This document shows positions 25,032 to 64,000 of a DNA stretch of 64,000 nt, piece after piece. Each line of letters opens with the position of its first letter. Position 1 is the first letter of the stretch. The DNA comes from Candidatus Omnitrophota bacterium (lineage in GTDB: Bacteria; Omnitrophota; Gorgyraeia; JABMRG01). The notes below the pieces were generated by a model. The model did no database searches and was not told the origin of the DNA. It saw only the letters and a program-made list of their open reading frames with translations. The stretch spans positions 15,436 through 79,435 of the forward strand of contig JBAZLY010000002.1 of the NCBI GenBank assembly GCA_041650035.1. The letters are read 5' to 3'. The translations under genes were made by a program, and so were the position numbers.

Positions 25032-25051
25032 AAAATGAAGCTCATTCCTAA

Positions 25052-25628: not shown

Positions 25629-25656
25629 ATGTCCTATAATATATCTTATGTTAACT
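25629..25656. other. dif: dif-like XerC/XerD chromosome dimer resolution site
   Basis: ATGTCCTATAATATATCTTATGTTAACT; XerD arm TTATGTTAA identical to E. coli dif; about 23/28 identities to the Bacillus-type dif as I recall it; sits where the plus- and minus-strand gene blocks converge. Confidence 0.5.
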
Positions 25657-25896
25657 ATGCAATGTGAAAAACCCAGCCATAACCCATTATATTACGTAAG
25701 TTATAAAGTTATACATCTCGGTTGTGGATAATACCTAAATAATACCCCTAATGGCGATTAAAACATATCAAGTACTATCAGATATTACCTGCCTTTTATC
25801 ATTGTGGACACGCTAAGGTGATCGTATATTTAAAATTTTAAAATTTTTTTTTGAGCTTGAAACCGGAAAAAATAGCTTATTTTTTGTGGATATTTT

Positions 25897-27204
25897 TTAG
25901 CCGAGGTTTAGAAGCGGGATATTGAGGCGCTGTCTTTTGGTCTCCCCTTTTTGCAGGTTTTTTTGGCGCCAGGAAAGGCTGTTTCTTGGGTGGTTTTTTA
26001 AGCCCTTCCGCAAGGGGTTTTTTGATGATGCCAGATGGATGGTATGCTTGCCGTATTTTTTGGCAATTTCATCAATCATCCTTGAGACCTTTTCTACCTT
26101 TTCTATTCTTATCGCATCATCAAAAAGCGTCCTTTGATACTGCAAGTTTACGGTGATATCTGATAAGACAATGCCCGATGCCCTGTACAGCAGGCCATCT
26201 TTAAAGATATCGTCAAAAAGCCCTGCTAAAATATCTGCGAATTCCATCGTTGATGATGAATGACAGCTCAAGGTTGCCATGAGGCCTGTTGCCTTAAAAT
26301 CCTGCGTTTTTAGATATGCCAGAAGACGTCTCGCGAAAAGGCCGTGACGCCTTAATTTTATGCATGCAGACTCAAGATTTCTTGTAATCTGCGCCTTGAC
26401 AAACAATCTGTTTTTTGATGCCGGCGAAAAGGTCTTTGTCTTGCTTATTGATAAATACTTCTCTTTTCTTAATGTGTTGATTCGATACACATAATGCCCT
26501 CTAAGTTCAAGCCACAATTCCCTGCCTATTTTGCCTAAAATACTCTCCGCAAAATCTAAGGGTTTATTGATATAATCAAAGACATTATTAAGCCCATAAC
26601 GGCGTAAAAGCTCAACCGTATTATGCCCGAAACCGCAGACCTCCTCAAAAGAAGTCTGCTTTAAAAAGCAATGGATCTCATGGCCCGGCAATGCCTTTAT
26701 GCCGGACGGTTTATTACAGCCCGAGCAGAGTTTTGCAAGTGTCTTTGACAGGCTTAGGCCTATTGAGACAGTGATATCCAGCTCTTTTTCGATTCTTTTC
26801 TTTATTAGAAGCGCGATATTCTCATAGCCTGCGTGATAAAGCCTCCTCATACCGGTAATGTCGCAAAATGCCTCATCAATAGAATATTCCTCAACATCGG
26901 GGCTGAATTGCCTTAATATGGAAAACATCCTTTCAGAATAAATACTGTAAAGCTCATAATCACTTGGTATTATAATTGCGTCGGGGATAATCTTCTTAAC
27001 CTCATGCAGGCGTATACCCCTTCCAATGCCTCTGGCCTTTGCCTCATAGCTTGCGCAGGATACTATCCCCCTCTCTTTCCCCGTTATCACGGATTTTCCT
27101 TTTAAAATAGGGCTTCTGGCCTGCTCGCATGAAACGAAAAAGGCATCGCAGTCTACATGCAATATAGCCTTTGGATAGTTTTTAAGGGTTATGAATTGGG
27201 ACAC
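25897..27204 (-). CDS. Y-family DNA polymerase (UmuC/DinB-like translesion polymerase)
   Basis: LHVDCDAFFVSCE and YSIDEAF catalytic motifs; 435 aa; immediately downstream of lexA. Confidence 0.8.
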   Translation of the reverse strand: MSQFITLKNYPKAILHVDCDAFFVSCEQARSPILKGKSVITGKERGIVSCASYEAKARGIGRGIRLHEVKKIIPDAIIIPSDYELYSIYSERMFSILRQFSPDVEEYSIDEAFCDITGMRRLYHAGYENIALLIKKRIEKELDITVSIGLSLSKTLAKLCSGCNKPSGIKALPGHEIHCFLKQTSFEEVCGFGHNTVELLRRYGLNNVFDYINKPLDFAESILGKIGRELWLELRGHYVYRINTLRKEKYLSISKTKTFSPASKNRLFVKAQITRNLESACIKLRRHGLFARRLLAYLKTQDFKATGLMATLSCHSSSTMEFADILAGLFDDIFKDGLLYRASGIVLSDITVNLQYQRTLFDDAIRIEKVEKVSRMIDEIAKKYGKHTIHLASSKNPLRKGLKNHPRNSLSWRQKNLQKGETKRQRLNIPLLNLG

Positions 27205-49295: not shown

Positions 49296-50996
49296 TTAGA
49301 ATACCTCCCTCTCTTCACTGTAAGACAAGTCAAGAAAATTACGGAGTTTTTTGCTGCGAATAGGGTGGCGCAATTTACGCAGGGCCTTTGCCTCTATCTG
49401 CCTTACCCTTTCCCTGGTGACATGGAATATGGTCCCTACCTCTTCCAGGGTCCTGGGGTAACCATCACCTATGCCAAACCTTAATTTTAACACCTGCTTT
49501 TCCCTTTCCGTCAATGTATCAAGGACACCGTCCATCTGTTCCTTGAGCATCGAATAGGCGGTGGCGCTGGCAGGCGACATCGCCCTTTTATCCTCTATAA
49601 AATCGCCGAAATGCGTGTCACCTTCATCTCCGACCGGGGTCTGCAGTGATATCGGCTCCTGGGCTATTTTTAATATACCCCTCACCTTCTCGACGGAAAG
49701 GTCCATGTGCCGGGCTATCTCCTCCGGGGTCGGTTCCCTGCCTGTCTCCTGAACAAGCGACCTGGATACCCTGACAAGCCTGTTTATGGTCTCTGTCATA
49801 TGAACAGGTATCCTTATAGTCCTGGCCTGGTCCGCGATCGAGCGGGTAATAGCCTGGCGTATCCACCATGTGGCATATGTGGAAAATTTATAACCTCTCT
49901 TGTATTCAAATTTATCAACGGCCTTCATGAGGCCTATATTGCCTTCCTGTATAAGGTCTAAAAATGAAAGCCCCCTGTTCGTGTATTTTTTAGCAATTGA
50001 GACCACAAGCCTCAAATTCGCCTCAACAAGGATCTTTTTGGTCTTCTGGAAATTTGCCTCTCTCTTCTTTATATTGAATATAAGCTGTCTAATCTTATCC
50101 TGGCCGAAACCGAATTCCTTTTCTATCTTCCTGATATTCTTATTGAGGCCCGCGAGCTGCGAAAACCTTCTTAACCTCTTAAGCCTGTTTACCTCCTTCT
50201 GTATTCTCTCGATCTGTTCGGCATGCATCTTGATCCTAAAACCCATTTCCTCAATAAATGTGGTCACAAGGACGAATTTGCACAAGATCTCTTTTATGGT
50301 CTTTTGACTCTTTGTCCTCTTTAATTTTTTCAAAAGTTTCGCGATACGGGTAACAGGTTTTATCTTGGCGGGGGCCAGGTCCTCTTTTATATAATCCTCT
50401 GGATTCAATTCTTCGTTGACAATCTTTTGGGTAAGTTCCTTGACATACTCAACGCTTAGCCTGCAATCGAATATAACATCCCTAAAACCGTTTTCGGCCT
50501 CTTCTATCCTTTTGGCCAGACTTATCTCATCCTCTCTTGAAAGAAGCGGTATCTGACCCATCTGGCGAAGATACATCCTGACAGGATCATCCATGGGCCC
50601 GTCAGACTTAGGGGAAAGCGCATGTTTAGCAGCTTTGTCTTTTTCGCGGGCCGATTCCGAATCAAGGAGTTCTATATGCTCCCGGTCAAGAGTGGAGAGA
50701 ATCTCATCTATATCCTCGGATGATGTTACGTCTTCCGGTAATATTTGGTTTATCTCGTCAAAAGTAAGATAACCCTTGGCCTTGCCGAGGCTTATCAGCT
50801 CTTTTATCTTGGCCGCGGGAACAGCGCTCTGCGCCCACGCCTGCCCGGATAGCGTTTTACTTGAACAATTTAAGTCCGCGATTTCGGCCGTATCACGATT
50901 CGCGGCCCCGGTGGAAGGTTGCGTCTTTATAGTTTTATTTTTTTTCTTGACCGTGAAACTTTTTTTCTTCTTTACCACTTTTTTCTTGGCCATCAA
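49296..50996 (-). CDS. rpoD: RNA polymerase primary sigma factor RpoD with Lys-rich N-terminal extension
   Basis: Regions 1.1-4.2 conserved ([38 protein letters not shown]); about 60-aa K-rich leader. Confidence 0.9.
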
Positions 50997-52756
50997 ATCC
51001 TCTCGCTGCTTAAGGCGTCGAGCTGTTTTATAAGCTTCATAAGCTTATCATCGTCTCCCGCGGATTCCGCCTGCTTTATCATCGTTGTCAGGGTCTGTTC
51101 TTTGCGCGCGAGACAATCGCGTTTTACGCGGACAACGCAATCGTGAAGCGTCTTACGCCTGTCAACAAGCTTTTCAGATTCCTCAAACGCTTCATATATT
51201 ATACTGCTAAGCCCTTCATCACCTATGCGTTCAATTACCTTGCGTCCGCTGGGTATCTTGTTTTCATCAAGCAGTCGATAGATAACATCCACTATCCTGC
51301 GTATATCAGCGCTGGCAAATTCTTCTATATCAAGGACTGTCCTGACATTGCGGGCTATCGCCTCCTCCTCCATCATAAGGTTTATGATTATCTTTTCAGC
51401 CGGAGGTATCCTGTTGACGGATATCGCGCTTTTTGATTCAGAGATAGAAGAGTAATCGGATTTTATTTTTGACAACTCATCCAGCAGGACATCCTCCTGC
51501 ACAAAAAGAGTTTTTGACAGCCTTTTGATATAATCAGATCTAAGAACGCTGTTCTCTATCCTCTTTATGGTCGGCAGCATTTCCGCTGTTATGCGGGCCT
51601 TATCTTCCGAATGGGCCGGATTATATTTATTAAGAAGCAGCGTTAGCTTATAGTCAAAAAGATTGGGGGCGGAATCTACAATCTTTATCAGCCCTTCAGC
51701 CCCCTGCCGCCGGACATAACTGTCAGGGTCATCCCCTTTGTCGAGAGTAGCAACCCTTACAAAAAGCCCTTCGGAGACAAGCAGGTCGAGACCCCTTAAT
51801 GACGCGGCCTCACCGGCGGCATCCGCATCATATACTATGACCGCGTTCTCCGTGAACCTCTTGATGAGCCTTATCTGTTCAATGGTAAGGGCTGTCCCGA
51901 GCGTGGCCACAATGTTTTTTATGCCGTTTTGAAATGGGAGTATCAGGTCTAAATACCCCTCTACAATAATAACATAATCCTTTTTCCTGATCTCATCTAT
52001 AGCAAGGTTTAAGCCGTAAAGATGCCTGCCTTTGACATAGATCTCGCTCTCGGGAGAATTCATATACTTTGGCAGAGAATCGTCAAGTGTCCTGCCGCCA
52101 AAGGCTACAACCCTTGAACGCATGTCAAATATCGGGAAAATGGCCCTGGCCCTGAACCTGTCATAAAAACCATTATTCTTGCCGGGCATGACCAATCCGG
52201 CCTTTTGGAGAACTGACTCTGAAACACCCTTGGATTTGGCGTATTTCAGCAATCCATCCCATTCGCCGGAGGCATAACCGATTTTAAAAAAACCCACCGA
52301 TTCGGCATTCAGCCCGCGCCGGGCCAGGTATTCTCTGCCTGCGGCGGCCTTTGCGGAGGCCAGCAAAACCGCGTTATAATATTCCACGGCGAGCTGATTA
52401 ACGCGATATAATCCCGCTGAAGACCTGCCCGCCGGTGAACCATGCCTATAATTACCTTTTATGCCGGAAAGAGCTATTCCCGCCTTGTCAGCTAAAAGCC
52501 TTAAAGCCTCCATGAATTCAAGGCCTTCATGCTTCATTACAAAGGATATCATATCGCCGCCGGCGCCACAACCAAAACAATGATATATACCCTTAACAGG
52601 GCTTACCACAAACGATGCCGTTTTTTCATGGTGAAATGGACAGCATGCCTTAAAATTCCTGCCTGCCTGTTTTAACGGTATATAAGCCCCTATTATATCC
52701 GCTATATTAAGCTTTGAATGTATCTGTTCAATAATACCTTCTAAATCATTGGCCAT
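50993..52756 (-). CDS. dnaG: DNA primase
   Basis: Zinc ribbon [11 protein letters not shown]...CFGCG, TOPRIM EGYLD, C-terminal helicase-interaction domain; stop overlaps rpoD start. Confidence 0.9.
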
Positions 52757-52780
52757 CCTAAACCCGGTATCCGCTGTAAG

Positions 52781-53734
52781 CTATCTCTTTACCCTTATAA
52801 AACCTGAACATGGGGTGATTTCCATCTCTTGGCCGCGGGTTATAGAATCAAGGAGTATGTTAAGCCCAAGGCTGTCGCTTGAGATATGGCCCGCGATAAG
52901 GATATTCAATTTGTGTTTCTTGGCCTTTTTAAAATTATCCTCGCTCATATGCATAGAAATTATGGTTTTGACATCGGCCTTTACAAGCTCGGGAAATATT
53001 TTCTTCGAACCGCCTGTGCCGCCTGTCATCTCCACAATAACCTTACCGCAGGGATTTGACAACTTTCCCAGTATAACCCTCGGCCCGGTGCCGGTCTTTA
53101 TGGCATATTTATATTCGGGCTCTTCCGAGATAAGATCAACGATATCCTGAACGGTCTTGGGCCTGTTTTTTGATATCAGCTTTTGCAAATATTCCGACAC
53201 GCAGTTATCGGCAACAGTATGGGCGCACATAAAGGGGATGCCTAAAAGTGCCGCCGCATCCACCGCGCGCATAACATTGGCGGGGTGCGTCCTCCTGCTG
53301 ACCTCTTCTATCCTTTCATCAAGAAGTTTTTTTGCTTTTTTTCTGGAGACACCTGCGTCCTCCAGCAGGTCAAGCTGTATATCCATAACCTTATGCAATG
53401 CAGACAGGGCAGGACCCTCGGGGTGATGTGAAAGCACCATATCTATGCCTTTACCTTTGCCCCTAAGCATCTCGGCAAACATTATCTCCTGGGTCTCCAT
53501 GTCAATACCGGCAAGAATATTTTTTATCTCATGGACATGCTCGCCAAAAAGTATCCTTGTATCCCCATAAGGATTGAAAAGCCTGTCCATGTCGAAATCC
53601 TCCTTACCGGCAGGGTCTAAACCGTCATATTCCTTCTTAACAGACAATAAAAAATCCTTAACACCTTTTTCGCCGCGCGGATCGTGCCTTATGCCTTCGG
53701 CAACAGCACTGTCATAGAAATCCTTTAGCTTCAA
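52781..53734 (-). CDS. Nif3-family (DUF34) dinuclear-metal-centre protein
   Basis: MVLSHHPE metal-binding motif and C-terminal GTGGS...AGHISSD matching the Nif3 pattern. Confidence 0.55.
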   Translation of the reverse strand: MKLKDFYDSAVAEGIRHDPRGEKGVKDFLLSVKKEYDGLDPAGKEDFDMDRLFNPYGDTRILFGEHVHEIKNILAGIDMETQEIMFAEMLRGKGKGIDMVLSHHPEGPALSALHKVMDIQLDLLEDAGVSRKKAKKLLDERIEEVSRRTHPANVMRAVDAAALLGIPFMCAHTVADNCVSEYLQKLISKNRPKTVQDIVDLISEEPEYKYAIKTGTGPRVILGKLSNPCGKVIVEMTGGTGGSKKIFPELVKADVKTIISMHMSEDNFKKAKKHKLNILIAGHISSDSLGLNILLDSITRGQEMEITPCSGFIRVKR

Positions 53735-53770
53735 TTTCTACCTCTCTTTTACTTCAGTTTTCCAATGGGT

Positions 53771-54328
53771 TTATTTATATTTAGTCTTTTTTCCGGCGAG
53801 ATCAAATATAAAGGTGCCAGCGGTCTCTTCAGGCAGCCAAAATGTAAGAGATGTGTACGTACTTTCAACGGCCTTGACCAGAAACCCTCCCGTGCAGGAT
53901 TTTTCCTCAATGGAATCTCTCAAATAATCGCTTGGGATGAGCCCCAGGGCCGTCACAATTATTCCCGATAATATCACTCCCCTGCCAAAACCAATCACCG
54001 CGCCGCCTAATCTTTCAAGCTGGGGTATAAGCTGCACATTCATTATCTTTAGTAATAACGCGAACCCATATTTGAATATCAGCCTGATAAGCTGGATGAT
54101 TACAATAAAGCATAAAAACTGCGAAAGCCAGACAGGCAATTCAAAATTCACGACAAGGACATTCGCCGTGCGGGCATACCATATTACCGCGCAAACAAGG
54201 CTTACCAATATGCCCAAAAAATTAAACAACTCCGCGGTGAGCCCGAGTTTGGCCCCGATATATACAGCCCTCAAGCTTATGATTAGCACTATTACATCAA
54301 GCCAATTAATATTTTTTAAGATTTCCAT
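53771..54328 (-). CDS. cvpA: CvpA-family membrane protein
   Basis: NWLDVIVLIISL N-terminus, 4 TM helices; about 185 aa. Confidence 0.75.
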   Translation of the reverse strand: MEILKNINWLDVIVLIISLRAVYIGAKLGLTAELFNFLGILVSLVCAVIWYARTANVLVVNFELPVWLSQFLCFIVIIQLIRLIFKYGFALLLKIMNVQLIPQLERLGGAVIGFGRGVILSGIIVTALGLIPSDYLRDSIEEKSCTGGFLVKAVESTYTSLTFWLPEETAGTFIFDLAGKKTKYK

Positions 54329-54437
54329 ATAGTTTTATATCAAATAATAGTCAATATATATCATACAAAAAGCCAAAAGTCAAGGGCATTAGATTTTTGG
54401 GGACTCCTGCCTTTGACAAAACCGCAATTAAGCCGTC

Positions 54438-54459
54438 AAAAAATGCTGAAGTCACAGCA
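54438..54459 (-). terminator. candidate intrinsic terminator after the GT39 gene
   Basis: Minus-strand UGCUG-loop-CAGCA hairpin followed by UUUUUU. Confidence 0.3.
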
Positions 54460-54497
54460 AATAATTTTCAATTTATATAACCAACACTCTATTTAGG

Positions 54498-56009
54498 TTA
54501 CTCTTTTATGAACTTGCTCTTATCCGCATATAATGAATATTTAGCAAAAACCTTAATTTTCGAAATTAATTTATTAACTTGAGCAGGAATTTGATCAACA
54601 TCACTATTCATAACCACATAAAAATCTATTTTTTCATCATTCGCATATTTTAATAGTTCATTCTCATCAAATCCATTAAGCATTTTATTTGCTATCCCGC
54701 CACTATAAAAATCTGCCGAATAAGGCACCTGACAAAGATAAATTAATTCAGAGCCATCCTCCTTAGCTTTATCAAACGTCTTGCATATTATTTTATGAGA
54801 TTTCTTTAGCCCTTCATTAGGCGCAATAGTGAATAAGGCAACAGTAAAAAGAAAAGGCATAAAACACACAAAGAAAATAAAGACCTTAAAACTTGTAAAC
54901 CATTTGACTTTAGCAGCAACATTTAAAGCCTGATTATATTCAATCAGATAGACTATCAACACAGCAAATGCTGGTAAACCAGGCAACACATAGGTTATCA
55001 GAATATTCCCTGCTAAAGTAAAAAATAATAAGGGTGACAGAAACCACAACAAAAAATACGAAACCCAACTATCCTTGAATAGGCAATCGATAATTTTCTT
55101 TTTTCTAACAGTATACTGAATATTAAAAATGAAAATACCGAGCCATGGCAAGGCTGCCAAAATAAAAAACAACCAAATCATACCTCGAGGAAAATCATGG
55201 ACACTGCCATACAAATCCCCGCTCCAGGCATGGTAAATAAAGCGCATGAAATGCTCACCTATAAAAAAATATCTTAAGAAACCGGGAGTTTTGATTTCAG
55301 CAGCAATATACCATGGTAAGGATATTGCCAGCATTAAAATAGTTCCCCCAATCCAGGGAAAACTGCGTATCGCCTTAGCCCACTTTTTTTGAAATGATAC
55401 CCATACAATAATAGGAAATAAAGTTAAAACAACACCAACCGGCCCCTTAGATAGCAAGCTTAAACCTATTCCTAAAAAAAATGCATATCCCCAAAGAAGC
55501 TTATGACGACTAACCTTTTCTTCTATCGCTAACAAAAATGCACTCATTGATAAGGTAATTGAAAACGATAACGCAGGATCAGTCATAACTCCACCTGACA
55601 TAATATAAAATAACCCCACCGTTAATAATACTAAGCATGACTTTAATGCAAACACATTATTTCTAAAATTCTTTGCTGATAAAAACAAAAAGATCATATT
55701 GCCTATTGCAAATAACAAAGAAGGCAATCTAGCTGCGGTCTCCGAAACACCGAATAATTTAAAGCTCAATGCCGTTGCCCATATAGAAAGCGGCGGTTTA
55801 GCCCAAAAGGGAATTCCCGGGTCAGTTTGAGGTGTAATCCAATTATTCGTTGCAAGCATCTCACGAGCAATTTCAGCATAACGAGATTCCGTTTTATCCA
55901 TTAAAGGGCATGCTCCTAGTGCAATAAAACGTAAGCAAATAATAGCAAATAACAAAAACAAAAAAAATTTCACTTCTGAAAAATTATGGCTTGCTGTCAG
56001 TTTATTCAT
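54498..56009 (-). CDS. GT-C membrane glycosyltransferase, family 39/83 (ArnT/PMT-like)
   Basis: About 12 TM segments, N-terminal RYAEIAREML...WAKPPL motif, soluble C-terminal domain. Confidence 0.7.
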   Translation of the reverse strand: MNKLTASHNFSEVKFFLFLLFAIICLRFIALGACPLMDKTESRYAEIAREMLATNNWITPQTDPGIPFWAKPPLSIWATALSFKLFGVSETAARLPSLLFAIGNMIFLFLSAKNFRNNVFALKSCLVLLTVGLFYIMSGGVMTDPALSFSITLSMSAFLLAIEEKVSRHKLLWGYAFFLGIGLSLLSKGPVGVVLTLFPIIVWVSFQKKWAKAIRSFPWIGGTILMLAISLPWYIAAEIKTPGFLRYFFIGEHFMRFIYHAWSGDLYGSVHDFPRGMIWLFFILAALPWLGIFIFNIQYTVRKKKIIDCLFKDSWVSYFLLWFLSPLLFFTLAGNILITYVLPGLPAFAVLIVYLIEYNQALNVAAKVKWFTSFKVFIFFVCFMPFLFTVALFTIAPNEGLKKSHKIICKTFDKAKEDGSELIYLCQVPYSADFYSGGIANKMLNGFDENELLKYANDEKIDFYVVMNSDVDQIPAQVNKLISKIKVFAKYSLYADKSKFIKE

Positions 56010-56116
56010 TTTTATTGAAGTTTGTCGGTATTTTTTAGTTTGAAATATCGCTTTTTATGCCTTTTAGATCTTTTGCCTTGACCCGGGGTAAAATACCTGA
56101 TTCGCTTTTGCCGGCA

Positions 56117-58222
56117 TTAGGAATTGGAGGCGTCAAGAAACAACCCGGCATACTCCTGATTCCCATAGGCGGCGATAAAGGCATCGACTACCAAAGGATC
56201 GAAACAGCTTCCCTTTTTTTCTTTAAGCCTTTCGAGAGCCTGCCGCCTGTCGATAGGTTCTCCTTCCAGATGCGTTGAGGTCATAGCGTCAAAGGCATTG
56301 CAAACAGCTATAACGCGCGATGCCATAGGTATGGCGTTACCCTTCAATCCGTCAGGGTAACCCGTGCCGTCAAAATTCTCATGATGATACCGGATAACAT
56401 CAAAACTGTCTCCGATCTCCTTGATAGGCTTTAATATATTCTGGCCTATAATAACATGCTCCTTGAAATGTTCCTTTTCCTCTTCGGTTAAAACAGAATG
56501 TTTTTTTAGTATCCTGTCCGGTATGCCTATTTTGCCTACATCATGCAAAAGCGAGGCCACATGAAGCGTCTCATAAAAAGAATCGCTAAAATTGACGTAA
56601 GGAAGCAGCCTTTCGAGTTCTTTAGCCGTTGCCATCGCGTAATCGCTCAATCTCTGGGTATGGGCATAAGTATATCCGTCCTTTGAATCAATGGCAAAAC
56701 TGAATGCCGATGCCGCGTCTAAAAACAATGCGTGCTCTTCCTTATACAACGCGTCTAATTTGCGTATCCTCTCTTTGAGTTCTTCATACATCCGTGCGTT
56801 CTCAAAAGCAATGGCGGCATTATTGGCCAAGGTGGATAAAAGCGAAAAATCATCGCTCGTGTAGATATTTCCAGATAGTTTCGCTCCAAGCACTATGAAA
56901 CCGATAATCTGGCCCCTTAAAAAACTCGGGACACATAAGGCAGCGCCTGATCTTTCCATAGCCATCCTTATGTGGTCGAGGGTCTTTTTAAGGACGGGCC
57001 TCTGCGGAAAGATCTTGTCACCCTGTATCCAGCTTAAAACACTCTCATAACTTATAGGCTCTTTTTTTTCAACGAGCCATTTAACCAGCGGATTATCCGC
57101 GTCTATCTTATCCAGGGTATCCTGCCCTTTAAAACCCCTGCGCACCTCTCGGATATAGGCATTTGCCGTTTTATTGTAAATATATGCTGAACTTCCGGTG
57201 ATCCTTATCTCTTTTGATATAAATCTTACCATCAGGTTCAGAAGTTTTCTTGTATCGGTTATTAGTGTCATACCTTTGGCAACTTTTTTTAAAACCAGCA
57301 TATAATCATATCCGCGTTGATACAAGAACGCGTCGGTAAATCTGGCAAGAAATTCCTCCAGTGTCCTTATAAAAACGGTAAGGATAAAAACCGCGGCTAT
57401 GGGCAGTATCCATCTGTTCATATTAAAAGTAACGGATAGGTGCCGCTGAAGGATAAAGACAAACGCCACGAAGCTTCCAACGCTTGCCCCGTAAAGTGTT
57501 GAGAATATCAGCGTCCGCCTCTTTATGACCTCAACACCCATAAGACGTACCACGTATGTGGCAATAGCTACAAAAAGATTAGCGAGGGCAACAAAATACA
57601 GGGCCATCGGACCTATAACAGGAACGGAAATACCGTAAATTGTAAAAAACATCAAGCTGCCGCCGCTTAGCCCGCATACCCCCGCTATCGTAACATATTT
57701 CATCTGGCGTTTGCCTATATCGCTAAGCTTGCCAAACGATTTATGCATAAGATAATGCGCGTAAATAGGCAAAGCGGCAAAAAACAGCATAAAAACCGGG
57801 TGAAGTATGCCGGGGTCGTTAAAATTCAGGCCAAGTTTAAATGACACGCTCTTAACAATCAACGGCGTGAAACTTAAACATGAAAAAATCACCGCAATCG
57901 TATAACCCGCGGACAAGGCCTTTCTGCTTTTGCCAGTCAAGCCTAAAAGTTTTACGATAAAATGGAAATAAAATATAGGAACAAAAGAGACCCCGATATA
58001 AGAGACCCTGGCAAAAAATAACGCATAATCCTTATCGTTGAACAGGCAGAATAATAAAGTACATAACGAAAACTCCGCGATAGAAAGCATCAGCAGATAA
58101 TAACTTCTTACGATCTCACCTCTCCTACCGCGAAAATAAATAAGGCTTCCGAGCAAAAGAGTGATAACAAGCGTAAAGACGGAACCTGCCAAATAATGTA
58201 ATCTGTAATAACACATACTCAA
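56117..58222 (-). CDS. 7TM sensor - GAF - HD-GYP c-di-GMP phosphodiesterase (paralog 1)
   Basis: Multi-pass N-terminal domain, central GAF, C-terminal HD-GYP (HDVGKIG...HHENFDGTGYPDGL). Confidence 0.75.
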   Translation of the reverse strand: MSMCYYRLHYLAGSVFTLVITLLLGSLIYFRGRRGEIVRSYYLLMLSIAEFSLCTLLFCLFNDKDYALFFARVSYIGVSFVPIFYFHFIVKLLGLTGKSRKALSAGYTIAVIFSCLSFTPLIVKSVSFKLGLNFNDPGILHPVFMLFFAALPIYAHYLMHKSFGKLSDIGKRQMKYVTIAGVCGLSGGSLMFFTIYGISVPVIGPMALYFVALANLFVAIATYVVRLMGVEVIKRRTLIFSTLYGASVGSFVAFVFILQRHLSVTFNMNRWILPIAAVFILTVFIRTLEEFLARFTDAFLYQRGYDYMLVLKKVAKGMTLITDTRKLLNLMVRFISKEIRITGSSAYIYNKTANAYIREVRRGFKGQDTLDKIDADNPLVKWLVEKKEPISYESVLSWIQGDKIFPQRPVLKKTLDHIRMAMERSGAALCVPSFLRGQIIGFIVLGAKLSGNIYTSDDFSLLSTLANNAAIAFENARMYEELKERIRKLDALYKEEHALFLDAASAFSFAIDSKDGYTYAHTQRLSDYAMATAKELERLLPYVNFSDSFYETLHVASLLHDVGKIGIPDRILKKHSVLTEEEKEHFKEHVIIGQNILKPIKEIGDSFDVIRYHHENFDGTGYPDGLKGNAIPMASRVIAVCNAFDAMTSTHLEGEPIDRRQALERLKEKKGSCFDPLVVDAFIAAYGNQEYAGLFLDASNS

Positions 58223-58285
58223 CCTATATTTGAAGTAAACCGGCAGGACTATGGCCTGTTTAAATATCCATAATGAACCGGCTCG

Positions 58286-60355
58286 CTATTCTATCTTGCC
58301 CTGCTCAAAGGCCTTTAAAAAGGCCGCGACTACATAAGGGTCGAATTGCGCAGACGCGTTTTTTTGGATCTCATCCCTTGCCGTTAAAGGAGGAAGTCCT
58401 TTTCTATACGGTCTATCGGATGTCATAGCGTCATAGGTATCGGCTACGGAGATGATCCTCGCCATAAGCGGTATTTCATCCGATTTGAGACCTTCAGGAT
58501 AACCCTTACCGTCATATCTTTCATGATGATATCTGATGCCACCGACAAGATCCTTTAATCCCGCGATATGCGAGACGATCTCCGCACCCAGCACGGGGTG
58601 TTTCTCTATCTCTTTTCTTTCTTCAGGCGTAAGCTGCGCGGGTTTATGCAATATATCGTCAGGCACGCCTATCTTTCCTATGTCATGCAAGACCCCCGTT
58701 ATCTGCAGTCTGTGCCTGAAAAAGGCATCTTTATCTATTTCATCCATGGCACCCATAAAATCAAGTATCACCAAGCTGATATTAGTGACCCTCTGCGAAT
58801 GGCCGTGCGTATAGGGGTCTCTGGCGTCTATGGCGGCGGCGAATGCCACCGACGAATGCATGAATAGCCTGTGCTCTCTTTTGTAAAGATTTTCAAGCTC
58901 AAACGCCTTTCTGTCTATCTCAAAATATAACTGCGAATTTTTAAGCGCGATAGCCGCCTCGTTGGATAGAGCGCTGAACAGATCCATATCATCCTGCGAG
59001 AAAAAATCACCGTTTTTCTTTTCCCCGAGTATAAGCACGCCTAAAAGATCATCCCTGAAAAAACAGGGCACGCTCAATGCCGCGTGAAGGGTAGACATAG
59101 TGTCTTTTATCTGGAACAGGTCAGACTTAAGCGACCCGGGTATTCGTCTTTGGTTAAAATTATTCATCCACTTCAAGACATCATCCAAAGCGAGCGGTCT
59201 TTTTTTTTCGCTAAGCCACATTATCAGGGCATTTTCAGACCTCAAACTTATCAGGCCATCGCCGATGTCACCCCTTGAGGCCTTCAGAACATACGAAGAG
59301 GATCTGCTATCAAACAGGAATACAGCGGCATTTGCGAGCTTAAGCTTCGCGGATATTATGTGCACAATAAGGTTTAGCAGTTTTTTTGGGTCACGAATCT
59401 TCGACATGCCTTCGGCCGCGTCCTGCAAGGTCTTCTGGTATTCGTACTTCCTGCGAAAAAGGAATCTGCCGGCAACATTATATATAGTTTTTTCAACCGG
59501 ACGGATTACGAGGGTTACAAGCAGAAGTGAAAACGCGGGGACAATCCAACGATTATCGCCTATATAAGGCTTAAGGAATTGTTCACCGGCTATAATCGCG
59601 AGCATAAAAAGTCCTATCGAAAAACCGAATATACCTGCGAATATCGCCGTCTCACGTATAATAATCTCAATATCCATAAGACGATGACGTATTATAGCAT
59701 AGGCAATAATCATAAGCGAAATTGAAATAAAAACAAAACCAGGCGGATATATCTCAAAACCATAATTAACAGCGAAATCAATTCCTGCCAAAAAATATAG
59801 CCCAAAAGCAACTAACACATACTTGAGTTGTTTTTTTAAAAAAAGATTAGTTTCATTATAAAATTTCCCAATTGTTTTATATGAACCTCTACCAGCTAAG
59901 AAAAATAAAAAAATAATATAAAAAATATGCAGAACTCCTGCTTTCGGGTAATACCCCCATATATTTGAATAATGCCCATTAATAAAAATACGTGTCATCC
60001 ATAGAAAATAAATAAAAAACAAGCCAATAACATAAAATATTCTTATCGCTACGTATTCTTTTTTTGCTCCAATAAAAGATATAGCAAAATTAAAATATAC
60101 GATCGGTAAAAATATAATAAACGAATACCCAATTTTAATAACCAAATCAACAGGCAATAAATCAGGAAAACCAAACAATATAAACCATGAAAATTGCCAT
60201 CCAAACGTCGTTAAACTTAATAAAAAAAATAACCGATTCGTATGAAAACGAGAATTTTTTATTATCACAAAAATTCCCATTAGAAGAAACAAAATTGAGC
60301 TTAACAAAGGTGGGTATGAATATAAATTTAAATGCATATTATATATATTGGACAC
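58286..60355 (-). CDS. 7TM sensor - GAF - HD-GYP c-di-GMP phosphodiesterase (paralog 2)
   Basis: Same architecture as paralog 1; HDIGKIG...HHERYDGKGYPEGL; start overlaps thioesterase stop by 17 nt. Confidence 0.75.
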   Translation of the reverse strand: MSNIYNMHLNLYSYPPLLSSILFLLMGIFVIIKNSRFHTNRLFFLLSLTTFGWQFSWFILFGFPDLLPVDLVIKIGYSFIIFLPIVYFNFAISFIGAKKEYVAIRIFYVIGLFFIYFLWMTRIFINGHYSNIWGYYPKAGVLHIFYIIFLFFLAGRGSYKTIGKFYNETNLFLKKQLKYVLVAFGLYFLAGIDFAVNYGFEIYPPGFVFISISLMIIAYAIIRHRLMDIEIIIRETAIFAGIFGFSIGLFMLAIIAGEQFLKPYIGDNRWIVPAFSLLLVTLVIRPVEKTIYNVAGRFLFRRKYEYQKTLQDAAEGMSKIRDPKKLLNLIVHIISAKLKLANAAVFLFDSRSSSYVLKASRGDIGDGLISLRSENALIMWLSEKKRPLALDDVLKWMNNFNQRRIPGSLKSDLFQIKDTMSTLHAALSVPCFFRDDLLGVLILGEKKNGDFFSQDDMDLFSALSNEAAIALKNSQLYFEIDRKAFELENLYKREHRLFMHSSVAFAAAIDARDPYTHGHSQRVTNISLVILDFMGAMDEIDKDAFFRHRLQITGVLHDIGKIGVPDDILHKPAQLTPEERKEIEKHPVLGAEIVSHIAGLKDLVGGIRYHHERYDGKGYPEGLKSDEIPLMARIISVADTYDAMTSDRPYRKGLPPLTARDEIQKNASAQFDPYVVAAFLKAFEQGKIE

Positions 60356-60749
60356 CTCTTATAGCGATCTCGGGAGGAATGGGTATTACTGAACCATTCT
60401 GTCCAACAAAACCAATTTTTTGCCGACCTTCACCGTGTATTTCGTTGGTAACTTTATTAACAAATGTAAAAATAAGTTCAAATGTGGTAATTTTTGGATT
60501 TTTAACCTCTACCTTTATTTCAATATCATCAAACAACAAAGCCTCTTTCTTAAATTTCATACTAGCCTCTATCGTAACCATTTTGATCTTTTTATTTATA
60601 AAAAACATCGGGTCCGGCGTAACCTGCCTAAAAAATTCCTCTCTAGCAACACCTTGCCAATAAAAATAATTTGCGAAATAAACATTGCCAAATAAATTGG
60701 TATCTCGTAAATATACACGGATATTGATTGAGAAATTTTTTTTTGCCAT
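60339..60749 (-). CDS. hotdog-fold acyl-CoA/acyl-ACP thioesterase (YbgC/4HBT-like)
   Basis: 136 aa; N-terminal R.DTNLFGNVYFANY as in 4HBT thioesterases. Confidence 0.6.
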   Translation of the reverse strand: MAKKNFSINIRVYLRDTNLFGNVYFANYFYWQGVAREEFFRQVTPDPMFFINKKIKMVTIEASMKFKKEALLFDDIEIKVEVKNPKITTFELIFTFVNKVTNEIHGEGRQKIGFVGQNGSVIPIPPEIAIRGVQYI

Positions 60750-60752
60750 AGC

Positions 60753-60998
60753 CTATTCCCTTCCAAGGTTATTTTTTATGTAACAAATTAAATCATTCAC
60801 GGTCTTAATACCTTGTGTGTCTTCGGTTGAAATTTCAAAATTAAACTTCTCTTTCACAATAAAGGATAATTCCGCGAAACCAAAAGAATCAATAGCTAAG
60901 TCTTCAATTAATAGCAAATCGTTTTTTATTTTCGCGCAATCAATATCAAGCAACTCTGAAAACATACCTTTAACAGTTTCCTCTATATTAATATTCAC
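60753..60998 (-). CDS. acyl carrier protein (dedicated ACP)
   Basis: DLAIDSFGFAEL phosphopantetheine-attachment motif; GTG start after AGGAGG; the longer ORF-track version would overlap the KAS 3-prime end. Confidence 0.6.
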   Translation of the reverse strand: MNINIEETVKGMFSELLDIDCAKIKNDLLLIEDLAIDSFGFAELSFIVKEKFNFEISTEDTQGIKTVNDLICYIKNNLGRE

Positions 60999-61017
60999 AA
61001 GTCCTCCTAATTTCCTT

Positions 61018-62250
61018 TTACATCTTTGAAAAAAGCAGGCACGCGTTATTATTGCCAAATCCAAATGAATTGGAAAGGGCAATGTCCACGTTGCGTTTAA
61101 GATGCTTTTTCATGATGTGATTAAGCCTACAGTCCTCATCAGGGGTTTCAAGGTTAACCGTAGCGTGCATCTTGCCTGATATTATTGTCAAGGCGCATAC
61201 AGCTGCCTCAATCGCTCCAGCGGCGCCTAAGGTATGGCCTATCATAGACTTAGTGGAACTTACCGGTATATGTTGCGCGTCTTCCTTAAACACATTGACT
61301 ATCGCCTTGGCCTCCGCCTTATCATTCGCGATAGTGGAGGTCCCGTGGGCATTTATATAATCAACGTCTTTTGGCGTAACAGCCGATTCGTTAAGGCATA
61401 ACCTCATAGCCCTTGCCACGTCGATAGCATCAGGCCGCGGCATAACGATATGATAAGCGCCTGATGTCACGGAATAGCCTTTTATCTCGGCATATATGTC
61501 GGCCTTTCGCGCGAGCGCGTGGTCAAAGGATTCCAGTATCAGGACAGCCGCTCCTTCCCCCATCACAAAACCATCTCTATCTTTGTCAAAAGGCCTTGAT
61601 GCGGATTCCGGATTATCATTTCGCCTGCTCATTACACTTAATTTATCAAAACCCAAGAAATTATATCTCATTATAGGCGAGTCTGTCCCACCTGCTATCA
61701 TAATTTTAGCCCTTCCCCGACGTATTGTGTCAAATGCCTGGCCGATACTATGAGTGCCTGACGAACATGCCGTGCAAATGGTTAAATTCGGGCCTTGGGC
61801 ATTATGCACAATGGCAATCTGATTCGCGACGGAATTTGGCATTATTTTGGGGATAGAGACAGGATTGACCGCAGTATTGCCACCATCTATTATATTTACA
61901 ATTTGTGTCTCCGCGAACACCATGCCTCCTAGGCCTGTGCCTACGCATACACCGGTATATTTAGGATCCGGGTTGTTTAAACGGCTGTCTTCCATGGCCA
62001 TAGAGGCGGCGGCAATGGCAAACTGCGCGAATTTATCGGAGCGCCGCGCAATTATCTTATCCATGTATTGAGTGGGGTCAAAATTATCTATTGTGGAGGC
62101 TATCTTGCAGTTATACTCACTGACATCAAAGGCGGTTATTCTCCTGATATTGGATTTTCCGGACAAGCAATTTTCCCAAAAGATATCCTTGCCTATGCCG
62201 ATTGGGGTCACTAATCCGATTCCGGTAATTACAACCCTCTTATCATTCAA
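61018..62250 (-). CDS. beta-ketoacyl-ACP synthase II family (FabF/FabB-like)
   Basis: Active-site Cys (CTACSSG), His (HGTS, GHTLGAAG) triad; 410 aa. Confidence 0.85.
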   Translation of the reverse strand: MNDKRVVITGIGLVTPIGIGKDIFWENCLSGKSNIRRITAFDVSEYNCKIASTIDNFDPTQYMDKIIARRSDKFAQFAIAAASMAMEDSRLNNPDPKYTGVCVGTGLGGMVFAETQIVNIIDGGNTAVNPVSIPKIMPNSVANQIAIVHNAQGPNLTICTACSSGTHSIGQAFDTIRRGRAKIMIAGGTDSPIMRYNFLGFDKLSVMSRRNDNPESASRPFDKDRDGFVMGEGAAVLILESFDHALARKADIYAEIKGYSVTSGAYHIVMPRPDAIDVARAMRLCLNESAVTPKDVDYINAHGTSTIANDKAEAKAIVNVFKEDAQHIPVSSTKSMIGHTLGAAGAIEAAVCALTIISGKMHATVNLETPDEDCRLNHIMKKHLKRNVDIALSNSFGFGNNNACLLFSKM

Positions 62251-62253: not shown

Positions 62254-62964
62254 TTATTCCCCTTTTTGCACCATCCCATCGGCAATATGTATCACCTTAT
62301 CGCCGTATTTGAGCTGGCGGTCATCATGAGTAACAAGAAACACGGTAGCGGATCTTTCCTTGTTTATCTTTGCCAGCAGGTCAAGTATTATCCTGCCGTT
62401 ATCAGAGTCAAGGCTGGCGGTAGGCTCATCACAGAGAAGTATGGCAGGGTTGTTGATAAGACTTCTGGCAACCGCTACCCTCTGTTTCTCACCCTCCGAC
62501 AGATGGGCAGGCCTGTGACGCGTTCTCTCCTTCATCCCGACAAGCTCCAGCATGCCTTCCGCTTTTGCCAAAAGGCTTGATGAATAACCTGCTTTGGCGA
62601 CGGCGGGCAAAAACACGTTCTCCAATGCCGTGAGTTCATCCAGGAGATAATACTTCTGGAAGATAAAACCTATATTGTTCAACCTGAATTCCGCCCTTTT
62701 GACACGGTTAAGTAAAACGGTGTCATGCCCGTCCAGCGCGATCGTGCCACAGGTAGGCACATCTATAAGCCCCAAAAGGTTTAAAAGAGTAGTCTTACCG
62801 CTGCCCGATGGGCCGAATAATATCGAAAACTCGCCGCTTTTTATCTCGAGATTAACGTCCTTTAATGCCCGCACAACGGTACTACCGAGATGATAATCCT
62901 TCTTCAGATTCTTTACGCTTATTATAACCCTATTGTTTTTGGAATTAAATTTAGTCTTAACCAT
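62254..62964 (-). CDS. ABC transporter ATP-binding protein (LolD/MacB/DevA type)
   Basis: Walker A GPSGSGKTT, signature LSEGEKQR, Walker B LLCDEPT. Confidence 0.85.
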   Translation of the reverse strand: MVKTKFNSKNNRVIISVKNLKKDYHLGSTVVRALKDVNLEIKSGEFSILFGPSGSGKTTLLNLLGLIDVPTCGTIALDGHDTVLLNRVKRAEFRLNNIGFIFQKYYLLDELTALENVFLPAVAKAGYSSSLLAKAEGMLELVGMKERTRHRPAHLSEGEKQRVAVARSLINNPAILLCDEPTASLDSDNGRIILDLLAKINKERSATVFLVTHDDRQLKYGDKVIHIADGMVQKGE

Positions 62965-64000
62965 TAGTCGCCTCTTATAACCTTGATTATATTCTCTTTC
63001 CCGCTCTTTACCGCGTAATAAACGCTTGCCATAAAAGACACACCCAGGAAAAGCGCGGTCGCGTAGATATAACTGTTTATCTCAAACATCGGATAAAGAT
63101 CCCCGAAAGGCATTACGATAGGATGGGCTTTAAGATACATCTGCAACAGACAATAAAGACCTGTCCCGGTAACTACTCCTATCACGGCAAACAATATCCC
63201 CTCAATGATAAAGAACGTTAAAAATATCCTGCCTTTTATGCCGATAGCCCTTAGGATACCTGTTGTTCTGCGTTTTTTCTGTGTATTGTAAAACACGATA
63301 AACGCGACCAATATTGCCGCGCAGATAATGCTTACGCCAAAAGTGATAATGCTTATAAGGTTAAAACCGTAAACAAGGTCATCTGTCCCGTAATCATCGC
63401 GGTCCTTCCAGTGTTTCAACTCCACGTCAAGATTGTAAGGCTTATACATGCTGGCGCCTTCCTGATCGATCTTCATATCATCCTTAAGGCGTATGAACAC
63501 ACTTGATGACCTATCCTGCAGTGTCGCAACATTTCTTAAGGTCTGCAAAGGTATAAAGATGCTGTTATTAGCTATGTAATCCCTGAAATCAGCAACACCT
63601 ACTATCTTGACATATTTGTCCTTATAGACATCTTTATTGAACTTGTCTATATTGTATTCTTTGATGAATATGCCCTTCGCGGTGTCTTCAAGCGCGATAT
63701 CCTCATTAATAGGTATCTTTAATTTAAAACGCCTCTTTAAGATCTTTCCCAATATTATCTCTTCCGAAACCGGCCCTGAAAAATATCTGCCCTCAACGAT
63801 ACTATTCTTCAGGTCCATAACCTGTTCGCCGAACTCAAGCCCCCAGGCCATGGTGACTATCCTTGAACCCTTATACTCCAAAACGCAGGGCATCTCAAGC
63901 ACAGGGGTCATCTCGCCTATCGTCGTATTAAGGCCTATAGCGGCCATAACACGCTGTGTGTCATATATATACGATTGCCCCCTTAAAGGCGTAGCGTAGA
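62964..64000 (-). CDS. FtsX/MacB-type ABC permease (LolE/DevC-like), 5-prime end beyond the window
   Basis: Large periplasmic MacB_PCD-like domain and C-terminal 3-TM FtsX domain; frame open to the window edge; stop overlaps the ATPase start. Confidence 0.7.
   Translation of the reverse strand, partial: YATPLRGQSYIYDTQRVMAAIGLNTTIGEMTPVLEMPCVLEYKGSRIVTMAWGLEFGEQVMDLKNSIVEGRYFSGPVSEEIILGKILKRRFKLKIPINEDIALEDTAKGIFIKEYNIDKFNKDVYKDKYVKIVGVADFRDYIANNSIFIPLQTLRNVATLQDRSSSVFIRLKDDMKIDQEGASMYKPYNLDVELKHWKDRDDYGTDDLVYGFNLISIITFGVSIICAAILVAFIVFYNTQKKRRTTGILRAIGIKGRIFLTFFIIEGILFAVIGVVTGTGLYCLLQMYLKAHPIVMPFGDLYPMFEINSYIYATALFLGVSFMASVYYAVKSGKENIIKVIRGD

Follow-up and report, generated by a model that had tools for sequence, protein, structure and literature searches.

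Introduction

Two adjacent genes encoding membrane-bound HD-GYP phosphodiesterases, here named A and B, lie on the minus strand of a 64,000-nucleotide (nt) stretch of DNA (the window) from Candidatus Omnitrophota bacterium (GenBank assembly GCA_041650035.1, contig JBAZLY010000002.1, positions 15,436 to 79,435). Omnitrophota is an uncultivated phylum whose members are often ultra-small. The question raised by this locus is what two proteins with the same three parts, a seven-transmembrane (7TM) domain, a GAF domain and an HD-GYP domain, are doing side by side. The initial annotation took them for a duplicated sensor pair that reads different membrane or periplasmic cues and could regulate envelope remodelling through cyclic di-GMP (c-di-GMP). 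The comparison with related loci leads to a different picture, to which about even chances are given: a conserved pair of two unequal phosphodiesterases, together with a cassette in which a biosynthetic product and its cognate sensor would feed into c-di-GMP turnover. The presence of two HD-GYP paralogs as such is ordinary; the exchanged sensor-plus-enzyme cassette and the partner with an asparagine at a metal-ligand position are new variants of known themes. The descriptive part, which comprises the conservation of the pair, the Asp-to-Asn change, the mosaic structure of B with its boundaries and the linkage to the upstream genes, is very probably correct taken together.

Domain organization and topology of A and B

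A and B, of 701 and 689 amino acids (aa), are maximal open reading frames (ORFs) starting with TTG and GTG, respectively, and their coordinates (Table 1) are exactly those initially annotated. The true start of A is likely the ATG at 58216, which gives the 699 aa of the NCBI model P0001, and that of B is likely the ATG at 60337, which gives 683 aa and is preceded at 1 nt by the stop codon of a thioesterase gene. Pfam matches to HisKA_7TM, to GAF, GAF_2 and GAF_3 and to HD_5 and HD are found in both proteins, which bears out the shared three-part architecture. HisKA_7TM scores 43.9 bits in A and 36.2 bits in B, above the cutoff of 28.6 (E-values 3e-11 and 8e-9 for the pair), and the matches cover profile positions 3-222 of 224. 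HD_5 matches A with an E-value of 4e-33; the GAF match is above the Pfam cutoff, and in Foldseek the B model superposes on solved GAF domains and on that of PmGH, a c-di-GMP-specific GAF-HD-GYP phosphodiesterase of Persephonella marina (4MCW). Over their full length A and B are 32% identical (BLASTP, E 2e-121), with 22.6% identity in the 7TM, 35.0% in the GAF and 36.1% in the HD-GYP domain. The N-terminal parts are the most divergent, as had been proposed, and near-identical N-termini are ruled out, but the HD-GYP cores, described as conserved, are so mainly at motif level.

Both proteins show nine predicted transmembrane (TM) helices (hydropathy and two AlphaFold models), and the order of parts is 7TM bundle, TM8-TM9 hairpin, GAF, S-helix and HD-GYP. 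The topology is N-out/C-in by the positive-inside rule, all predicted outer loops have 18 residues or fewer, the one between TM4 and TM5 contains a small beta-hairpin (aa 125-139 in B), and a periplasmic domain is absent. Therefore, any cue would be sensed inside the membrane or at the membrane surface, and the periplasmic cue initially suggested is disfavoured. The full-length AlphaFold2 (AF2) model of B has a predicted local distance difference test (pLDDT) score of 78.8, and the isolated 7TM bundle one of 96.1, with a predicted template modelling (pTM) score of 0.91. The best Foldseek match of the B model is PmGH (4mcw, E 4e-18), and the 7TM bundle shows no significant structural relative in the Protein Data Bank (PDB). 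The architecture itself is not rare, since 7TM and HD-GYP are found together in 42 of the best 150 representative clusters of an HMMER search with A as query. No architecture with HisKA_7TM is mentioned in the census of HD-GYP proteins by Galperin and Chou, the literature on HisKA_7TM consists of domain censuses and gives no ligand for the domain, and a literature search combining Omnitrophota and c-di-GMP returned nothing relevant.

The 7TM domain of B is part of an exchanged island

The closest relative of the window is locus L001. In blastn, the two loci align at 83% and 80% identity on either side of an unaligned stretch, the variable island (Table 1), and the only other unaligned stretch (54397-56132) is the region of a glycosyltransferase (GT) gene downstream of A. 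The 7TM of B is 27.9% identical to that of its closest relative P0089, with a shuffle baseline of 27.2 +/- 3.6%, and the remainder of B is 90.4% identical; in matched genome pairs, the B 7TM shows about 28% identity at any identity of the backbone. In bins of 20 residues, identity within the B family is 23-34% over the first 220 residues and rises to ~75% at residue 221 and beyond, a step that A does not show: its 7TM tracks the backbone (86.5% vs 86.1% for the rest, compared with P0002). Invariant columns of the B alignment begin at R225. Among the 37 full-length B proteins, 18 discrete 7TM types can be told apart, and their distribution does not follow the backbone: the pair P0092/P0110 shares 99.1% identity in the C-terminal part and 26.9% in the 7TM, and the pair P0110/P0041 shares 92.8% in the 7TM and 78% in the C-terminal part. 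Judged from these alignments, B is a chimera whose sensor was exchanged laterally as a block with the upstream genes, and not by gradual divergence.

The boundaries of the exchange are visible in the DNA. Loci L007 and L006 share 97.7% identity starting at codon ~214-222 of B and cannot be aligned upstream of it, with the break at the codons for LMDIE. Between L006 and L100, an identity of 90.8% ends 7 nt beyond the ABC-ATPase gene, the two loci contain 3.4 kb and 2.0 kb, respectively, of unrelated DNA, and homology is back at the junction in B. The left boundary of the island is the ABC-ATPase gene or a beta-ketoacyl-acyl carrier protein synthase (KAS) gene, and the right one is the junction motif at the end of TM7, whose consensus across loci is YAI(I/L)RHRLMDIE(I/V)IIRETA. 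In the full-length model of B, aa 224-248 show pLDDT values of 34-46 and form the only low-confidence region between two confident modules, so that the genetic breakpoint coincides with a structural module boundary. No site-specific recombination features were seen at the junction, a conserved coding motif that is consistent with homologous recombination, and no silent or donor 7TM cassettes, as in pilS-like variation, were found in the window.

The island shows a guanine-cytosine (GC) content of 0.294, against 0.461 in the KAS gene and 0.450 in the backbone of B; within B, the GC content at third codon positions (GC3) is 0.215 in the 7TM and 0.530 in the remainder. The coding of TM helices was rejected as the cause of the low GC, since the 7TM of A (0.449) and CvpA (0.497) show normal GC3 values. 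The islands of L001, L006 and L100 show the same GC drop. Between L006 and L098, the synonymous divergence (dS) is 0.144 in the gene occupying the slot upstream of B (like HMG-CoA reductase, HMGR, in both), 0.165 in the B 7TM and 1.81 in the rest of B, which indicates that the cassette moved between lineages long after the backbone had split. Within types, the 7TM shows a ratio of nonsynonymous to synonymous divergence (dN/dS) of 0.19-0.21; together with the high pLDDT of the bundle, this indicates that the modules are maintained by selection.

Linkage between the 7TM type and the upstream genes

The slot upstream of B contains in the window a stand-alone acyl carrier protein (ACP) and a 4HBT thioesterase. 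In other loci it contains ACP-4HBT, KAS-ACP-HMGR-like (in some cases together with a GMC oxidoreductase), a Shikimate_DH-like gene, a PilZ gene or nothing, and another slot protein belongs to the 3beta-HSD/NAD_binding_4 family and shows a weak match to a thioester-reductase domain (125 bits, cutoff 213). The window ACP is divergent: all NCBIfam ACP models are below cutoff, and it is 34% identical to the ACP of L001 and 52% to that of L101. The window 4HBT is 73% identical to that of L088, where it precedes a histidine kinase, and 59% to that of L101. The spacing between the slot gene and B ranges from -16 to +22 nt, which suggests co-expression.

In 14 loci, the 7TM type follows the class of the upstream gene: the type, shared when 7TM identity is at least 45%, is the same in 9 of the 10 pairs of loci with the same upstream class and never in the 81 pairs whose upstream genes differ, where 7TM identity reaches at most 37%. 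L007 and L088 are 27% identical in the upstream protein, 34% in the 7TM and 72% in the backbone. The rank correlation between 7TM and upstream-protein identity is weak (Spearman rho 0.26, p 0.056) because most pairs do not have any upstream homology. Context forecasts made from the 7TM type alone were borne out in three of three cases (HMGR for P0041, a reductase for P0096 and PilZ for P0105) and again for P0115, the only full-length B-family protein besides the window B with a 7TM like that of the window (type X; 49% identity), which is encoded at L101 in the order HTH_17-KAS-ACP-4HBT_2-B-A.

The nearest relatives of the window B 7TM are not in B orthologs: they are the 7TM domains of Omnitrophota 7TM-GAF histidine kinases (46-53% identity), which are encoded directly after ACP-4HBT_2 at L088, L096 and L097. 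L096 (1547-6689) and L097 (5004-10100) show the gene order HTH_17, ACP, 4HBT_2, 7TM-GAF histidine kinase, REC, REC and GAF-HD-GYP (407 aa), also found in L022. Type X thus follows ACP-4HBT in five of five loci, in different genomic contexts, with two output types (GAF-HD-GYP in the window and L101, a GAF-histidine kinase followed by REC-REC-GAF-HD-GYP in L088, L096 and L097) and with 4HBT identities down to 30-32%; this long-term co-retention is the main argument for a functional, and not merely physical, link.

Several observations were made beside this linkage. The operon of L096 and L097 resembles a two-component version of the fused window B, and operons of 7TM-kinase, REC and GAF-HD-GYP recur at L014, L018, L066 and L087. 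In L005 (6604-7944) and L100 (6650-7996) the slot is occupied by a PilZ-domain protein of ~446 aa, with a weak Methyltransf_20 match in L100, which would be a c-di-GMP receptor co-varying with the adjacent phosphodiesterase sensor module; nothing else nearby points directly to c-di-GMP biology. P0130 (423 aa, on a 1.7-kb ENA contig) shows a type-X-like 7TM (62% identity to the window B) with Sigma70_r4 at aa 380-411, a fusion that is probably a gene-call or assembly artefact of the short contig.

Conservation of the B-then-A pair

Orthologs of A (51-87% identity) and of B (49-69%) are found on the same contigs, in the order B then A in all 18 Omnitrophota loci for which DNA is available, window included. 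Where the contig extends far enough, the pair is followed by cvpA-nif3-dnaG-rpoD, with the exception of L093-L095: after A, L093 and L094 show an opposite-strand 7TM kinase and L095 shows ACP-KAS, not cvpA. On this gene order and these identities, the pair is old and not a recent duplicate. The simple duplicated sensor pair of the initial annotation gives way to an old ordered pair of non-equivalent copies, in which the sensor of B was exchanged laterally.

The opposite-strand kinase is a third HisKA_7TM protein (7TM-HisKA-HATPase), convergent with and directly after A (L093, 12576-14279; L094, 6228-7796; both minus strand). Some copies of the pair show signs of decay or of sequencing error: in L100 (10221-12255) the A ortholog is split into a 7TM ORF of 425 aa and an HD ORF of 251 aa, in L099 (10318-12126) it is called as 602 aa without a 7TM match, and in L088 a frameshift lies within the 7TM of B at ~8640. 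The N-terminal truncation of B in L090 and L095 is due to masked N-runs and not to biology.

Active sites of A and B

Both families were aligned to PmGH (PDB 4MCW), with the numbering checked against PMC4159591. The HD dyad and the following lysine (H221/D222, K225) are LHDVGK in A and LHDIGK in B, and the HHExxDGxGYP motif is HHENFDGTGYP in A and HHERYDGKGYP in B. Among 29 A-family and 37 B-family proteins, no substitutions occur at H189, H221, D222, K225, H250, H276, H277, E278, D281, G284, Y285, P286 and D308. B shows all seven shared metal ligands (H189, H221, D222, H250, H276, H277 and D305), with D639 at the position of D305. A shows six of the seven, with Asn642 at this position, and its ligand set is incomplete. 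The HD and GYP motifs that the initial annotation relied on are therefore intact in both proteins, but A carries an asparagine at a metal ligand and, in the window genome, has lost the guanine-contacting loop described below. The position of E185, the eighth ligand of the trinuclear subfamily, is Tyr in A and in B, so neither shows the E/D-T-G ligand; a Tyr or Phe there defines the Y/F subfamily, predicted to be binuclear (PMC4159591), in which both are placed.

At the position of D305, Asn is present in 29 of 29 A-family and Asp in 37 of 37 B-family proteins in the PmGH alignment, and an independent alignment-based count gave Asn in 37 of 37 A and Asp in 45 of 45 B. Elsewhere Asp is present in 79 of 80 unrelated metagenomic HD-GYP proteins and in 22 of 23 other retrieved homologs; the metagenomic set comes from a scan with the full-length B alignment, in which most of the genes recovered were distant GAF-HD-GYP genes and one was a B ortholog. 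An exhaustive HMMER search with A against 1.84 billion representatives showed Asn, within the best 150, in members of the A clade (with identities as low as 42%) and otherwise in a single unrelated protein; 128 of 140 domains have Asp. The rule of Asn in A and Asp in B extends to the most distant B-A pairs (L093-L095 and L101). Asn is therefore a fixed, derived character of the A lineage.

PmGH D305 is a metal ligand on helix alpha10, and the D305A mutant shows markedly reduced, not abolished, activity; R314 and K317 form hydrogen bonds with guanine, and R314A and K317A have little effect (PMC4159591). The guanine-contacting loop is present in B as DRPYRK. In the window A it is replaced by THLEGE, with H651, E653 and G654 in place of R314, Y316 and K317, a replacement shared only with P0002, a relative of 87% identity (TYLEGE); most A orthologs keep RP(Y/H)RK. 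The substrate loop and the C-terminal helices of HD-GYP evolve faster in A (mean identity 54-61% vs 75-77% in B). The active site of A is, on these alignments, probably a weakened variant. A is not called a dead enzyme, because D305A retained activity and the documented inactive HD-GYPs lost several ligands: DvhD changed HD to SQ and HH to MN, and HnoD changed HD to SE.

The best PDB sequence match of B is V-cGAP3, specific for 3'3'-cyclic GMP-AMP (cGAMP) (5z7c, E 4e-36), against an E-value of 6e-32 for PmGH, so that the substrate of B may be c-di-GMP or cGAMP. For A the order is reversed, with PmGH scoring above V-cGAP3. By these matches, the substrate specificity of A and B could differ.

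The glycosyltransferase slot and the neighbouring genes

Table 1. Features of the A-B locus in the window.
Feature	Position	Strand	Description
cvpA-nif3-dnaG-rpoD	49296..54328	-	Conserved housekeeping block downstream of the B-A pair
ArnT-like GT-C (PMT family)	54498..56009	-	Pfam PMT and PMT_2; GC 0.345, GC3 0.304
Gene A	56117..58222	-	Conserved 7TM-TM8/9-GAF-HD-GYP paralog; variant active site
Loop THLEGE of A	56258..56275	-	Residues 650-655, in place of DRPY(R/K)K
Asn642 codon of A	56297..56299	-	Aligns with PmGH metal ligand D305
Gene B	58286..60355	-	7TM (type X)-TM8/9-GAF-S-helix-HD-GYP; canonical site (D639, R648, Y650, R651)
HD-GYP domain of B	58304..58837	-	aa 507-684; seven binuclear-type metal ligands, GYP, DRPYRK loop
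Junction motif YAIIRHRLMDIEIIIRETA	59645..59701	-	aa 219-237, end of TM7; right recombination anchor (11 loci, DNA and protein)
Swappable 7TM bundle	59684..60355	-	B residues 1-224; beta-hairpin at aa 125-139; GC3 0.215
Variable low-GC island	59742..61011	.	ACP, 4HBT and first ~205 codons of B; no alignment to L001
4HBT_2 hotdog thioesterase	60339..60749	-	YbgC-like; Pfam E 4e-14; D-x-N-x-x-G-x-V motif; TIGR02799 weak
ACP	60753..61082	-	Pfam PP-binding; maximal ORF, start probably near 61010; DSF phosphopantetheine-site motif
FabF-type beta-ketoacyl-ACP synthase II (KAS)	61018..62250	-	TIGR03150 524 bits (above the 494 cutoff); 89% aa identity to L001 KAS
ABC ATPase	62254..62964	-	Pfam ABC_tran; LolD 212 bits and DevA 202 bits, both below cutoff; also MacB-like
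FtsX-family ABC permease	62964..64000	-	Cut by the window end; Pfam FtsX; lolCE well below cutoff; 83% DNA identity to L001

The neighbours agree with the initial annotation, with FtsX/ABC, FabF-like KAS, ACP and 4HBT upstream and a PMT-family ArnT-like GT-C downstream. The FtsX permease, a weak LolC/E-like match, lies in the conserved region left of the island, the 3' end of the ABC-ATPase gene is the left anchor of the island in relatives without KAS-ACP, and an FtsX/ABC pair resembling LolD/DevA is upstream in most loci.

The GT gene, in surroundings of ~0.45 GC, is a second variable slot. Its score with the ArnT model is 153 bits (cutoff 567), so that only membership of the PMT/PMT_2 superfamily is supported. 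It is absent from L001, by an insertion or deletion spanning the unaligned 54397-56132. A GT-C gene is located directly after A in 7 of the 18 loci; in six of them it encodes a PMT_2-TPR protein and starts 0-1 nt past A. The window GT is 26% identical over 174 aa to the PMT_2-TPR of L003 and non-orthologous to it. The presence of two different GT-C in the same slot may indicate that A is functionally tied to a GT-C enzyme. The proposed envelope remodelling through the ArnT-like GT finds a weak link here: the gene is absent in L001, of foreign GC, and replaced or missing elsewhere.

Elsewhere in the window, an Rfam scan gave no matches to c-di-GMP riboswitches or other RNAs, and a promoter and terminator scan found promoter-like sites at chance level and yielded no usable signal. 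The cumulative GC skew peaks at ~24-26 kb (within ~24000-27000), and genes are on the plus strand from 1 to 25 kb and on the minus strand from 26 to 64 kb, which would fit a replication terminus-like region. In L003 (1-1773) and L099 (1-2699), a gene encoding an RHS/TcdB-type toxin (~2,020 aa) is located a few kb upstream of FtsX-ABC-slot-B-A, and the toxin region of L099 also contains a Y1 transposase.

Discussion

In the mechanism proposed, the FabF-like KAS, the dedicated ACP and a chain-releasing enzyme would produce a membrane-soluble acyl product. The releasing enzyme, a thioesterase in the window and an HMGR-like protein or a candidate thioester reductase elsewhere, would give each product a different head group, and the neighbouring FtsX/ABC pump would possibly export it. 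The cognate 7TM bundle would recognise what its own cassette makes, within the membrane or at its surface, a step that is put forward tentatively, at somewhat less than an even chance, and the signal would pass through TM8/9, GAF and S-helix and switch the hydrolysis of c-di-GMP, or of a related cyclic dinucleotide, by B. A would assist B as a partner of low activity or as a regulator, either alongside it or within a heterodimer, the latter possible because the solved HD-GYPs are dimers. This role of A is the least certain part, more doubtful than the sensing step, and it is just as conceivable that A works independently as an enzyme whose metal site has been retuned.

Several points weigh against this mechanism. 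Co-variation of the 7TM and the upstream gene is expected too from their physical linkage between two anchors. The single same-class exception to it consists of GMC oxidoreductases that are 40% identical and precede unrelated 7TM types, two of the HD-GYP same-type pairs (L003/L099 and L005/L100) fit plain vertical descent, and pairs of loci are not independent of one another. Some slot genes are unlike acyl-release enzymes (PilZ and methyltransferase-like, Shikimate_DH-like), and in L004 the slot is empty. None of the 4HBT, HMGR-like, thioester-reductase, LolD/DevA and ArnT matches reaches its NCBIfam equivalog cutoff, and the KAS could be the housekeeping FabF. Nothing structural hints at a lipid ligand, because the 7TM bundle has no significant PDB relative. 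A motif search of the 64-kb window found no GGDEF (diguanylate cyclase), EAL or PilZ signatures, so that regulation through c-di-GMP is deduced solely from family membership. A may still be an active enzyme, given that D305A only reduced the activity of PmGH and R314A/K317A had little effect. Finally, all the evidence is metagenome-derived sequence, from which activity and ligand are predicted.

The linkage could also be due to a neutral recombination hot spot, with the region from ABC or KAS to TM7 exchanged whole, the association only physical, and the 7TM reading an unrelated cue or acting as an anchor. The breakpoints in the two most conserved flanking sequences, the foreign GC of the whole island and the heterogeneous slot genes (PilZ, Shikimate_DH-like and GMC oxidoreductase, and none in L004) agree with such a hot spot, which is nevertheless considered unlikely, if well short of negligible: ACP-4HBT and type X are kept together in another operon with another output (L088, L096 and L097), their association holds at 30-32% identity of the 4HBT and 46-50% of the 7TM, which points to long-term co-retention and not to a single transfer, the modules show a within-type dN/dS of about 0.2 and a confidently predicted fold, and the slot-B spacing suggests co-expression. 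The view of the initial annotation, two independent and equivalent phosphodiesterases with different cues that act on envelope remodelling through the ArnT-like GT and the lipid operon, matches the architecture and motifs, the GT-C after A in 7 of 18 loci (six at 0-1 nt) and the lipid and ABC genes upstream in many loci. It is improbable in view of the window GT, which is absent in the closest relative, has a GC of 0.345 and is not an ortholog of PMT_2-TPR, of the absence of a periplasmic domain, of the non-equivalent active sites and of the sensor of B, gained as a block with ACP-4HBT and not diverged in place. A matching of the 7TM to the upstream protein itself through cytoplasmic loops, which could for instance bring the enzyme or PilZ protein to the membrane, would cover the slot genes that are not obviously lipid enzymes (PilZ and methyltransferase-like) and is compatible with the tight spacing through co-translational assembly; a little less probable again, it has to explain how slot proteins of unrelated folds are matched by one homologous 7TM fold, and why KAS-ACP plus a release enzyme resembles a short biosynthetic pathway. 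Chimeric contigs joining paralogs at conserved sequence could be suspected, as all sequences are from metagenome-assembled genomes (MAGs) or metagenomes and L088 has a frameshift in B. The same junction with intact frames and the same combinations is found in independent sources (NCBI MAGs, JGI, ENA and Logan), several clusters are represented on 2-8 contigs, and the junction is conserved as protein while the flanking DNA is too different between lineages for k-mer-level misjoins, so an artefact is almost out of the question.

As to A, a fully competent phosphodiesterase, in which Asn is tolerated or retunes the metal site and the pair consists of two enzymes with different inputs, is plausible without being favoured. 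No variation is seen in A at six of the seven binuclear ligands, at D308 and K225 or in GYP, the Asn is strictly conserved and not drifting, PmGH D305A is partly active and R314A/K317A little affected, and DvhD, as an inactive HD-GYP, lost several ligands. Full competence is made less likely by the near-universal Asp at this position in other proteins, by the faster evolution of the substrate loop and C-terminal helices of A, and by the loop having become acidic in the window genome (THLEGE).

The closest structural precedent is PmGH, which resembles the GAF-S-helix-HD-GYP half of A and B (E 6e-33 and 6e-32) and shares with both H189, H221, D222, H250, H276, H277, K225, D308 and GYP. Unlike A and B, which have Tyr at E185 and a nine-TM N-terminal half, PmGH is soluble and trinuclear (E185), and its D305 is replaced by Asn in A. 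DvhD, HnoD, ECA3548 and Bd1817 are precedents for HD-GYP paralogs that bind nucleotide or partners, and the ligand set of A is likewise weakened; DvhD and HnoD lost several ligands, whereas A keeps HD, HH and GYP and shows one change, to a residue capable of coordinating metal. The HisKA_7TM (PF16927) kinases share a bona fide 7TM domain with A and B, which differ in their HD-GYP output, and the TM8/9 plus GAF segment shows a weak match to PrsK, the XrtA/PEP-CTERM kinase (TIGR02916).

For the exchange of a sensor with its neighbouring genes, the nearest analogues are peptide quorum-sensing loci: in agr, a hypervariable region spans agrB-agrD-agrC (PMC10482373), and in comQXP the membrane domain of ComP is variable and the cytoplasmic part conserved (PMC4008528). 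The locus described here resembles them in a variable block over signal genes (here candidate ones) and the N-terminal sensor of the receptor, in conserved flanks, in discrete types, and in the exchange of types between near-identical strains, as in L007 and L006, with 97.7% identical DNA and unrelated cassettes. It differs in that agrBDC and comQXP use peptide signals and histidine-kinase receptors in Firmicutes hosts, while the candidate signal genes of this locus encode acyl-ACP enzymes and its sensor feeds into an HD-GYP domain (a kinase in the sister operons). The Rpf system of Xanthomonas, which uses a diffusible signal factor (DSF), consists of RpfF, a fatty-acid signal synthase, RpfC, a membrane sensor kinase, and RpfG, a REC-HD-GYP protein. 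The likeness lies in a fatty-acid-type pathway, predicted here, beside a membrane sensor with HD-GYP output, and the sister operons L096 and L097 share the three-tier logic. Unlike Rpf/DSF, the window has 4HBT, ACP and KAS, the sensor is HisKA_7TM and not the RpfC input domain, and it is fused to its output, with no phosphorelay. Pfam scans of the neighbouring genes did not find a crotonase/ECH domain of the RpfF type, so the locus is not a member of Rpf/DSF and analogous at most.

The membrane sensor domains of kinases and of cyclic-dinucleotide enzymes are mostly orphans, and this locus provides natural experiments on them: many receptor types, each tied to a neighbouring enzyme on a constant backbone, give candidate ligand/receptor pairs, such as the thioesterase product with type X and the HMGR-like product with another type. 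The single junction is a design rule for chimeric sensors, and the A/B pair is a clean case of a single fixed Asp-to-Asn change of a metal ligand, which could help to show how this ligand bears on metal choice and catalysis. In its fullest form, the reading would give Omnitrophota a lipid-based polymorphic pherotype system, with receptor modules like G protein-coupled receptors, grafted at one junction onto an HD-GYP phosphodiesterase or a histidine kinase, and the Asn-variant A as regulatory partner, which on present sequence evidence is rather unlikely to hold in all its parts. If true, it would provide the first ligand assignment for HisKA_7TM and a first case of pherotype-like polymorphism that does not involve peptide quorum sensing: strains would differ in the lipid signals that they produce and perceive, these signals would set c-di-GMP levels, and the architecture of peptide pherotypes may exist for lipid-derived signals as well.

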